Assembly: GCF_013315695.1 (NCBI RefSeq) | Contig: NZ_CP054353.1 | Reading direction: 5' to 3' (one strand) | Origin: Escherichia coli | GTDB taxonomy: Bacteria > Pseudomonadota > Gammaproteobacteria > Enterobacterales > Enterobacteriaceae | Length of the DNA stretch: 64,000 nt | Part shown: piece by piece, positions 16,904 through 19,375 of the stretch | Numbering within the stretch: position 1 is the first letter of the stretch | Layout of the letters: each line of letters starts with the position of its first letter | Position numbers and translations under genes: made by a program | The notes under the pieces: model-generated | Told to the model about the DNA's origin: nothing | Seen by the model: the letters and a program-made list of their open reading frames with translations, nothing else | The model's database searches: none

Positions 16904-17120
16904 TTATGCCTCAACGCATGTTTGTTCCAGCCGTTGAAGAATATCTTTACGTAACAAAAATTTTTGTATTTTACCGGAGGCAGTGCGCGGTAGTTTTTCG
17001 ATTACCACGATATGTTCAGGATATTTATATTTCGCGACCCGTTTACGGCTAAAAAATGCCACTACATCTTCCAGCGATAATGAATGATGCGGTGCTTTCA
17101 GCACGACATAAGCGCATGAA
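16904..17120 (-). pseudogene. fadK: fadK 3' fragment (acyl-CoA synthetase C-terminus), separated from the rest by IS1
   Basis: Translation ...YVVLKAPHHSLSLEDVVAFFSRKRVAKYKYPEHIVVIEKLPRTASGKIQKF... is the AMP-binding enzyme C-terminal domain; abuts the IS1 left end. Confidence 0.8.
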
Positions 17121-17175
17121 GGTGATGCTGCCAACTTACTGATTTAGCGTATGATGGTGTTTTTGAGGTGCTCCA

Positions 17176-17451
17176 GTGGCTTCTGTTTCTATCAGCTGTC
17201 CCTCCTGTTCAGCTACTGACGGAGTGGTGCGTAACGGCAAAAGCACCGCCGGACATCAGCGCTATCTCTGCTCTCACTGCCGTAAAACATGGCAACTGCA
17301 GTTCACTTACACCGCTTCTCAACCCGGTACGCACCAGAAAATCATTGATATGGCCATGAATGGCGTTGGATGCCGGGCAACAGCCCGCATTATGGGCGTT
17401 GGCCTCAACACGATTTTACGTCACTTAAAAAACTCAGGCCGCAGTCGGTAA
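17176..17451 (+). CDS. insA: IS1 InsA
   Basis: 91 aa [35 protein letters not shown]... with zinc-finger and HTH. Confidence 0.9.
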
Positions 17452-17873
17452 CCTCGCGCATACAGCCGGGCAGTGACGTCATCGTCTGCGCGGAAATGGA
17501 CGAACAGTGGGGCTATGTCGGGGCTAAATCGCGCCAGCGCTGGCTGTTTTACGCGTATGACAGGCTCCGGAAGACGGTTGTTGCGCACGTATTCGGTGAA
17601 CGCACTATGGCGACGCTGGGGCGTCTTATGAGCCTGCTGTCACCCTTTGACGTGGTGATATGGATGACGGATGGCTGGCCGCTGTATGAATCCCGCCTGA
17701 AGGGAAAGCTGCACGTAATCAGCAAGCGATATACGCAGCGAATTGAGCGGCATAACCTGAATCTGAGGCAGCACCTGGCACGGCTGGGACGGAAGTCGCT
17801 GTCGTTCTCAAAATCGGTGGAGCTGCATGACAAAGTCATCGGGCATTATCTGAACATAAAACACTATCAATAA
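17370..17873 (+). CDS. insB: IS1 InsB reading frame (expressed as the InsAB' frameshift fusion)
   Basis: 167-aa frame overlapping insA; the A-run TTAAAAAAC frameshift motif lies near the insA end. Confidence 0.85.
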
Positions 17874-17888
17874 GTTGGAGTCATTACC

Positions 17889-19375
17889 GCGCATGAACGT
17901 TCACCTAAACGTTCATCGGGCATCGCAACCACACAGGCATCGTGAATTTTAGGATGCTGCAATAAAATATCTTCTACTTCACGGCTGCTAATATTTTCGC
18001 CGCCGCGGACAATAATATCTTTCTTGCGCCCGGTTATTTTTATATAGCCAGCCTCATCCATGCGGCAGAGATCGCCGCTGTAATACCAGCCTTCTTCATC
18101 CAGCGCACGGGCGGTTAATTCAGGTTCATCAAAATACCCCATAAACACATTGGGGCCACGCGAGGCTTCTTCACCTTCGCAACCTGGCGGTAAGGTCTTG
18201 CGTGCGTCATCGACCACTTTAATCTCTACACCTGCGGCAGCGTAACCATCGGTGTGCATAAAGCGCGACAAAGGATCATCGAGATTCACCACCGCATGCG
18301 GCGAACTTTCTGTGGAACCATAAACACTTAATAATTTAATGCCGCGCTGCTGGCATTCACGCGCCACTTTTTTGGGGATTGTGGTACCGCCGCAAAGAAA
18401 GAAACGCAGCGCTGAAAGGTCTGCGGGCTGTTTCTCTAGTAAATTCAAAAGATCATAGACAAACGGCGTTGCGCCGAGCATACAGGTGCAACGCTGCTGC
18501 TCAAGCAGCGCGAGACACGCAGCAGGAGTGAAAATATCTAACAACACGCTGCGAGCACCAATTAAAAATGGTGCTGTTACGCCATGCAGAAAGCCCGTTG
18601 CGTGACCAAGTGGCGCAGGCATCATAAAGACATCCTGCCAGGTCAGATTCAGCCGCGCGCAATAAGCCCGCTCACTGGCGAGAATATTGTTATGCGTTAG
18701 CATCACGCCCTTTGGCAGACCCTCGGTTCCGGAGGTAAACAGCACCGCGGCTAATTCATCGCCGTGGACCGTTATCGCCGTGGTCAGAGGAGTATTGTCG
18801 GCGATAATCTGACTTAATGAGAGGGAAGAGGTGGCGGGAGCCAGTTTGTCCACGCCGACAATTTGTTGTAGTTGTGGAAGCTGATTTTGCAGTGGCAGGA
18901 TTAAATCTACCGGACGCGTTTGTTTAAACAACGTCGGTGCAAAGAACATTTTTGCCTGACACTTATTGAGCACCCACACCAGTTCTGCTTCCCGCCAGGA
19001 AGGTAACAGCGGCACGGAAACCGCACCGGTTTTCAGGCAGGCAAGATAGATAACGGTAAATTCACACCAGCCTGGCAGTTGAAATGCGATGCGATCGCCT
19101 GATTCAATACCCTTCGCTAACATCCAGTTTGCCAGACAGCTCGCGGCGTGATCGAGCGCGCTATAGGTGTACGTTGCACCATGATTGTCGACCACGGCAA
19201 TTTTGTCTGGCATCGCACGAGCGGTCTGCTGCCAGTAATCGGCCAGTGAAGCATCGCCCCATAACCCTTGCTGACGATACGCCGCACGACGTTGTTCGTT
19301 AAACGTTAATGTCACTTTCATTTTGGACTCTCGAAACAGAACATCAGGCCCGAGATGCGGGCCTGTGGGATGCAT
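17889..19375 (-). pseudogene. fadK: fadK 5' portion (short-chain acyl-CoA synthetase), truncated by IS1
   Basis: Starts MHPTGPHL.../MKVTLTFNEQRRAAYRQQG... (alternative start at 19321); AMP-binding motifs present; reading frame runs into IS1 and stops at 17867. Confidence 0.8.

Follow-up and report, generated by a model that had tools for sequence, protein, structure and literature searches.

A probable recent transposition of IS1 into the fadK gene of Escherichia coli, beside an apparently older insertion in ydiP

Introduction

The region of Escherichia coli DNA which we have analysed has a length of 64 kb, and we will call this whole stretch the window. A preliminary description, made from the sequence alone, reported that an acyl-CoA synthetase gene in the window is split by a copy of the insertion sequence IS1. 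This observation raises the question of how the element came to be there and what has become of the gene. A simple transposition, a hop from a neighbouring copy, a selected loss of the locus, an error of assembly and the arrival of a composite element are the explanations considered here. We have very little doubt about the answer as a whole: IS1 has been inserted by a simple and recent transposition into fadK, in a region where ydiP already carried an older insertion, and fadK has very probably become a null allele. Such an insertion is ordinary, textbook behaviour of IS1, already known in kind.

The IS1 copy in fadK

The element, which we will call IS1-A, is found in positions 17121..17888 on the + strand, so that its transcription is opposed to that of fadK. 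It is a complete IS1 of the IS1A type and its length is exactly 768 bp, both by reading of the sequence and by a script check. The terminal inverted repeats occupy positions 17121-17143 and 17866-17888: the left end is GGTGATGCTGCCAACTTACTGAT, the right end is the reverse complement of GGTAATGACTCCAACTTATTGAT, and they match in 18 of 23 positions. A promoter-like site is predicted in positions 17128-17155, inside the left end of the element, which is the place expected for the insA promoter. The insA gene itself (17176..17451, + strand) has a GTG start and codes for 91 aa.

The slippery motif AAAAAAC is found at position 307 of the element (window 17427..17433, + strand). When a -1 shift is simulated at this point an open InsAB' fusion of 232 aa is obtained, as expected for a programmed frameshift; the insB frame (17370..17873, + strand) contributes the DDE transposase part. 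The fusion has a score of 245 bits with the IS1 family transposase model NF033558 (transpos_IS1), for which the cutoff is 100 bits. Identical IS1 copies are labelled "programmed frameshift" in RefSeq, and the first 140 bp of IS1-A are a 100% match to copies annotated as IS1A in many E. coli genomes.

From these features IS1-A appears to carry everything that is found in the sequence of an active IS1, and it should be able to move. The known IS1A isoform is characterized by a length of 768 bp, imperfect terminal inverted repeats of ~23 bp, the insA and insB genes, the A6C shift site and a 9-bp target duplication: IS1-A has all of them. Structurally nothing distinguishes IS1-A from it; the insertion site alone is particular to the sub-lineage which we will describe below.

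The insertion site

Each end of IS1-A abuts one copy of the sequence GCGCATGAA, in positions 17112-17120 on the left and 17889-17897 on the right. There are no other occurrences on the + strand of the window, and the probability that nine out of nine nucleotides agree by chance at two fixed positions is 3.8e-6. If IS1-A and one of the two copies are removed, segment 16904..17120 joins segment 17898..19375 and a minus-strand open reading frame of 1695 nt (564 aa) is restored, with zero frameshifts and zero internal stops.

The empty site can be observed in other strains. Both E. coli MS 21-1 and E. coli MSB1_4I have a single GCGCATGAA at this point, and the restored 1695-nt frame matches the gene in the two of them. 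A 100-mer built from the joined flanks with one GCGCATGAA has an exact match in MS 21-1, where fadK is uninterrupted. When the window is compared by BLAST with the MS 21-1 locus, three blocks are obtained which are colinear (7904-17120, 17889-23748 and 24517-29152), with 99.9% identity; on the MS 21-1 reference there is an overlap of 9 bp at each break, which means at the two IS1 sites present in the window. In MSB1_4I we find 2 SNPs in the 14.2 kb on the left side, none in the 25.9 kb on the right side and a single one in another 20.2 kb. The window is therefore colinear on both sides of IS1-A with the uninterrupted locus of either strain, where the two flanks share exactly the 9 bp of the duplication.

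The overlap of 9 bp at the breaks, together with this colinearity, indicates a simple insertion without any adjacent deletion, inversion or other rearrangement. The preliminary description had already proposed a simple transposition, unrearranged since, on the basis of a 768-bp element and a perfect 9-bp repeat; the comparison with the empty sites gives the same result. An IS1A-type element would have transposed into the 3' third of fadK in a strain which hardly differs from the human isolate MSB1_4I. A staggered cut of 9 bp, followed by fill-in, would have generated the duplication of GCGCATGAA, and the site appears to have stayed unrearranged after the insertion.

The interrupted gene

The gene is fadK: the reconstructed protein of 546 aa has a score of 1082 bits with the NCBIfam equivalog NF004758 (medium-chain fatty-acid--CoA ligase), well above its cutoff of 736 bits. 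The reconstructed gene has 99.9% DNA identity with the annotated fadK of MS 21-1, which also has exactly 1695 bp. On its upstream side we find ydiT, ydiS, ydiR and ydiQ, on the downstream side a convergent gene for an SDR oxidoreductase. The ydiT/ydiS/ydiR/ydiQ context is common to the window gene and to the known fadK (ydiD), the medium/short-chain acyl-CoA synthetase of E. coli. The window copy differs from the intact gene in that it is interrupted after codon 496 and its C-terminal domain is no longer contiguous, as corresponds to a pseudogene.

The start of the gene deserves a comment. The limit at 19375 given in the preliminary description is indeed the start of the longest open reading frame; the start used in RefSeq is found 18 codons downstream, in window position 19321, and gives a protein of 546 aa which begins with MKVTL. 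A GC-rich hairpin, CAGGCCCGCATCTCGGGCCTG, is present in positions 19345-19365 of the minus strand, between the ydiT stop and the RefSeq-style start of fadK. It falls within the N-terminal extension of 18 codons which distinguishes the longest frame, and this position suggests that the shorter start may be the real one.

The 5' portion of the gene (17889..19375, - strand) contains residues 1-496 of the 564-aa frame. The 3' fragment (16904..17120, - strand) contains codons 497-564 with the stop, and before them the left copy of GCGCATGAA: it has 68 codons plus the stop, or 72 codons with the duplicated 9 bp, close to the figure of about 70 codons previously estimated. In the restored protein Pfam recognizes the domains AMP-binding (49-415) and AMP-binding_C (466-543). 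The break after residue 496 of 564 splits the second one. As it is found in the window, the frame is identical to the intact protein up to residue 496 (...ERSCA), it continues with six residues derived from IS1 (VMTPTY) and it stops at 17867.

The larger part of the mobile C-terminal domain, together with Lys543 in the PRTASGK motif, is found on the 68 detached residues, which can be aligned with the corresponding domain of adenylate-forming ligases of solved structure, for example the salicylate-AMP ligase 5wm2. The frame left in the window does not have AMP-binding and AMP-binding_C contiguous with the catalytic lysine. In the ANL superfamily the C-terminal lysine is required for the adenylation half-reaction. 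Since Lys543 is detached, a null allele is to be expected, and fadK is very probably an inactive pseudogene. A truncated FadK could keep some partial activity.

Polar effects on other genes are not expected, because fadK closes the ydiQRST-fadK cluster and the gene which follows it is convergent. It has been reported that strains mutated in fadK alone show robust growth on every fatty acid, owing to FadD (PMC9329746). As FadD covers the activation of fatty acids, the loss of fadK should have a low cost in fitness, and it is probably close to neutral.

A second IS1 in ydiP and the donor of IS1-A

There is another complete IS1 of 768 bp in the window, which was not mentioned in the preliminary description. 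This copy, IS1-B, occupies positions 23749..24516 (+ strand), in the same orientation as IS1-A and 6,628 bp away from it. It breaks the gene ydiP (23051..24739), which codes for an AraC-type regulator; YdiP, a possible regulator, was thus already disrupted in the lineage of the window. IS1-B has its own target duplication, TCAACGGCG, with the left copy in positions 23740-23748 and the right copy in 24517-24525. The duplication is perfect and the sequence is single at the empty site of MS 21-1. The two elements differ in 2 nt, at positions 28 and 103, where IS1-A has C and A respectively; the difference at position 103 leaves the InsA protein unchanged.

The presence of two IS1 copies so close to each other, in the same orientation, might indicate that IS1-A was copied from IS1-B, only 6.6 kb away. 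A further IS1 in the same locus, inside ydiF in the related strain AF3, would agree with such local movements. We consider this origin unlikely. IS1-A differs at positions 28 and 103 from IS1-B and from the copies in ydiP and ydiF of MSB1_4I and AF3, all of which have the IS1-B sequence. Moreover the allele of IS1-A is widespread and pre-existing: it is found in ~757 records with at least 99% identity, often as the IS1A copy beside yjiC. It should also be taken into account that with ~40 copies per genome two IS1 will be found in 64 kb by chance in ~9% of cases. A hop from IS1-B is not the most economical reading of these data.

Distribution of the two insertions in other genomes

Each insertion generates a chimeric protein, which we have used as a fingerprint. 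The YdiP-IS1 chimera (239 aa) was found in at least 235 public contigs, including one of E. coli KTE143 and a contig of 5.3 Mb. Among complete genomes the ydiP::IS1 junction is present in three: MSB1_4I, AF3 and 1368KP. The fadK gene is intact beside ydiP::IS1 in the sequences which we retrieved (L008-L010) and also in the annotated complete genomes of MSB1_4I and AF3.

The FadK-IS1 chimera is much scarcer. In its 484-aa form, with the MKVTL start, it was detected in at least 8 public contigs, all of them short; the 502-aa form which corresponds to the long reading frame was not found in the protein collection. In the 5,426 complete E. coli genomes we did not find either the left or the right junction of fadK::IS1. 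Strain H81 was examined as a candidate carrier and rejected: its match is in two pieces and corresponds to a different insertion, ~60 bp away.

At the nucleotide level the right junction between IS1 and fadK is present in all six contigs which were retrieved (L002-L007) and which come from separate samples of ENA and Logan. It is this junction alone that recurs in them, since short-read contigs break inside IS1. One of these contigs (L002, 6,079 bp) contains the fadK and ydiP junctions together, 5.86 kb apart as in the window. Five of the six are 100% identical to the window. The exception is L003, a metagenome contig (ENA ERZ27238810, k111_47477), which has the same right junction and 12 mismatches in 5,971 bp when compared with the window. 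It may be due to a mixture of strains in the assembly, or it may come from a more diverged carrier of fadK::IS1.

The order of the two insertions can be deduced from this distribution. As ydiP::IS1 is widespread together with an intact fadK, and fadK::IS1 is rare, the insertion in ydiP would be the older one, a marker of a wider lineage rich in IS1, and the insertion in fadK would be a recent event in one of its sub-lineages. The fadK::IS1 junction therefore offers a clean, recent marker of a sub-lineage within a human E. coli clone, rich in IS1, to which MSB1_4I and AF3 are related. Beyond strain typing it is of little importance. In our search of the literature we found no paper which describes MSB1_4I or its lineage.

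The abundance of IS1 in these strains is high: the chromosomes of MSB1_4I and AF3 have at least 40 IS1 places each, while the median is ~10 per genome. Only ~300-415 of 20,395 records have 40 places or more. The preliminary description had suggested that a count of IS1 copies might reveal an expanded, Shigella-like lineage. The first part of this suggestion holds, as the relatives of the window are rich in IS1; to the second part they give no support, being ordinary human isolates which have been deposited as E. coli, obtained respectively from a rectal swab in Australia and from a blood culture in the UK. An expansion of the Shigella type would imply hundreds of IS copies in the genome. We found no support for a Shigella origin: over ~60 kb the window is nearly base for base E. 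coli MSB1_4I. Judged by this similarity, the host would be an IS1-rich human E. coli and not a Shigella.

Frequency of IS1 in fadK and possible selection

In 11 of the 5,426 complete E. coli genomes there is an IS1 in fadK or beside it. We have mapped seven of them: four insertions are inside the gene, at codons ~412, 443, 478 and 516, and three are found at its 3' end or just past it. Each of the seven has its own duplication of 8-9 bp, and the isoforms vary. These alleles (in strains 26561, EC20-4B-2, STEC388, UID2309220033 and others) are similar to that of the window, with an IS1 in the 3' third of fadK and a duplication of 8-9 bp, and RefSeq annotates them as split or partial fadK. They differ from it by the point of insertion, by the isoform (IS1A, IS1B, IS1X2) and by their presence in unrelated strains, so that they must be considered independent events.

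Assuming a uniform insertion, ~20 copies of IS1 would be expected inside fadK by chance over the 5,426 genomes, to be compared with the 11 genomes observed; the comparison is rough, since genomes share ancestry and the survey joins only IS1 copies with the same orientation. The idea that fadK is a hotspot for IS1 was rejected on these figures. Within the roughness of the estimate, IS1 strikes fadK independently at about the rate of chance, which indicates neither a hotspot nor selection.

A role of selection could nevertheless be proposed at the level of the whole locus, if its stepwise loss were advantageous in a host-associated lineage. There are three independent IS1 insertions in ~10 kb, namely in ydiP (ancestral), in fadK (the window) and in ydiF (AF3), and independent insertions in fadK are found in at least 5 other strains. 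They would then represent an ongoing, selected dismantling by IS1 of the ydi-fadK electron-transfer-flavoprotein/acyl-CoA locus in one human-associated lineage, and recombination between the direct pair of IS1 could readily delete ydiQRST, or the pair could move these genes as a Tn9-like unit. We find this proposal quite improbable. The count of genomes with IS1 in fadK or beside it is below the number expected by chance, the fadK insertion of the window is rare, and growth is not affected by a knockout of fadK (PMC9329746), which fits a neutral decay. A simple transposition with little effect on fitness is the reading which we prefer, and the locus illustrates the ordinary erosion of accessory metabolic genes mediated by insertion sequences.

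Strain AF3 (L012, NZ_OZ547117.1) shows further changes. In positions 22711..23478 it has an IS1 identical to IS1-B, in inverted orientation, inside ydiF. Around position 35840 it lacks ~2.8 kb, equivalent to window 38762..41578, from sufA to part of sufD. These changes show an ongoing erosion associated with insertion sequences in the same region of the lineage.

Assembly errors and composite elements

Multicopy sequences are a well-known source of assembly errors, and IS1 has at least about 40 places in the complete genomes closest to the window; a copy might have been misplaced into fadK by the joining of wrong repeats. The preliminary description had mentioned a collapsed repeat as a possible objection. 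We consider such an artefact highly improbable. IS1-A is surrounded by a perfect target duplication; it can be distinguished from IS1-B by two nucleotides, so that the two copies were resolved separately in the assembly; and its right junction with fadK recurs in six independent contigs, in one of them with the ydiP junction at the same distance as in the window.

IS1-A and IS1-B are directly repeated and nearly identical, and between them lies a segment of 5,860 bp (17889..23748) with the 5' part of fadK, the genes ydiT, ydiS, ydiR and ydiQ and the 5' part of ydiP, all in their native chromosomal position. Directly repeated IS1 copies around a cargo are the architecture of Tn9. That the whole arrived as a composite unit of this kind, or was produced by an IS1-mediated rearrangement, has a practically negligible probability and was rejected: a separate 9-bp duplication belongs to each IS1, GCGCATGAA and TCAACGGCG, which form the outer flanks, agree in only 2 of 9 positions, the bracketed genes have the same order and position as in MS 21-1, which has no IS1 there, and many genomes hold the ydiP copy alone. 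The separate duplications and the native order of the segment correspond to two separate simple insertions. The pair in the window thus shares with Tn9-type elements the direct repeats around a segment of 5.86 kb, but it differs from them by having one duplication for each IS1 and a cargo in its native chromosomal context, which was not delivered as a unit. The two directly repeated copies are a substrate for a future deletion of 6.6 kb by recombination, which would remove ydiQRST.

Other features of the window

The left edge of the window (1..2222) is the terminal part of a prophage-like element, integrated in the intergenic region between ihfA and btuC at a point ~18 bp beyond the ihfA 3' end. 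This part contains a Cox-like open reading frame (3..281, - strand), a helix-turn-helix regulator (342..686), a tyrosine integrase (586..1710) and a frame which belongs to PHROG-14142 (1700..2116). The element is missing from the nearly identical MSB1_4I; it is found beside btuC in 118 complete E. coli genomes out of 5,426, O55:H7 CB9615 being one of them. Among the deposited phages of the phage collection we found no close match to it.

Four genes are found between ppsA and fadK, in positions 12274..16853. They code for an anion permease, a 2-hydroxyacid dehydrogenase, a protein of the YhcH/YjgK/YiaL family and the SDR oxidoreductase. In several other strains ppsA directly adjoins fadK. The block has the appearance of an accessory insertion which is characteristic of this genomic background.

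Finally, two tandem genes for tRNA-Val(GAC) are present on the minus strand in positions 56541..56698, with a mutual identity of 92%. They are ordinary: two tandem tRNA-Val genes are also annotated in the corresponding region of MSB1_4I.
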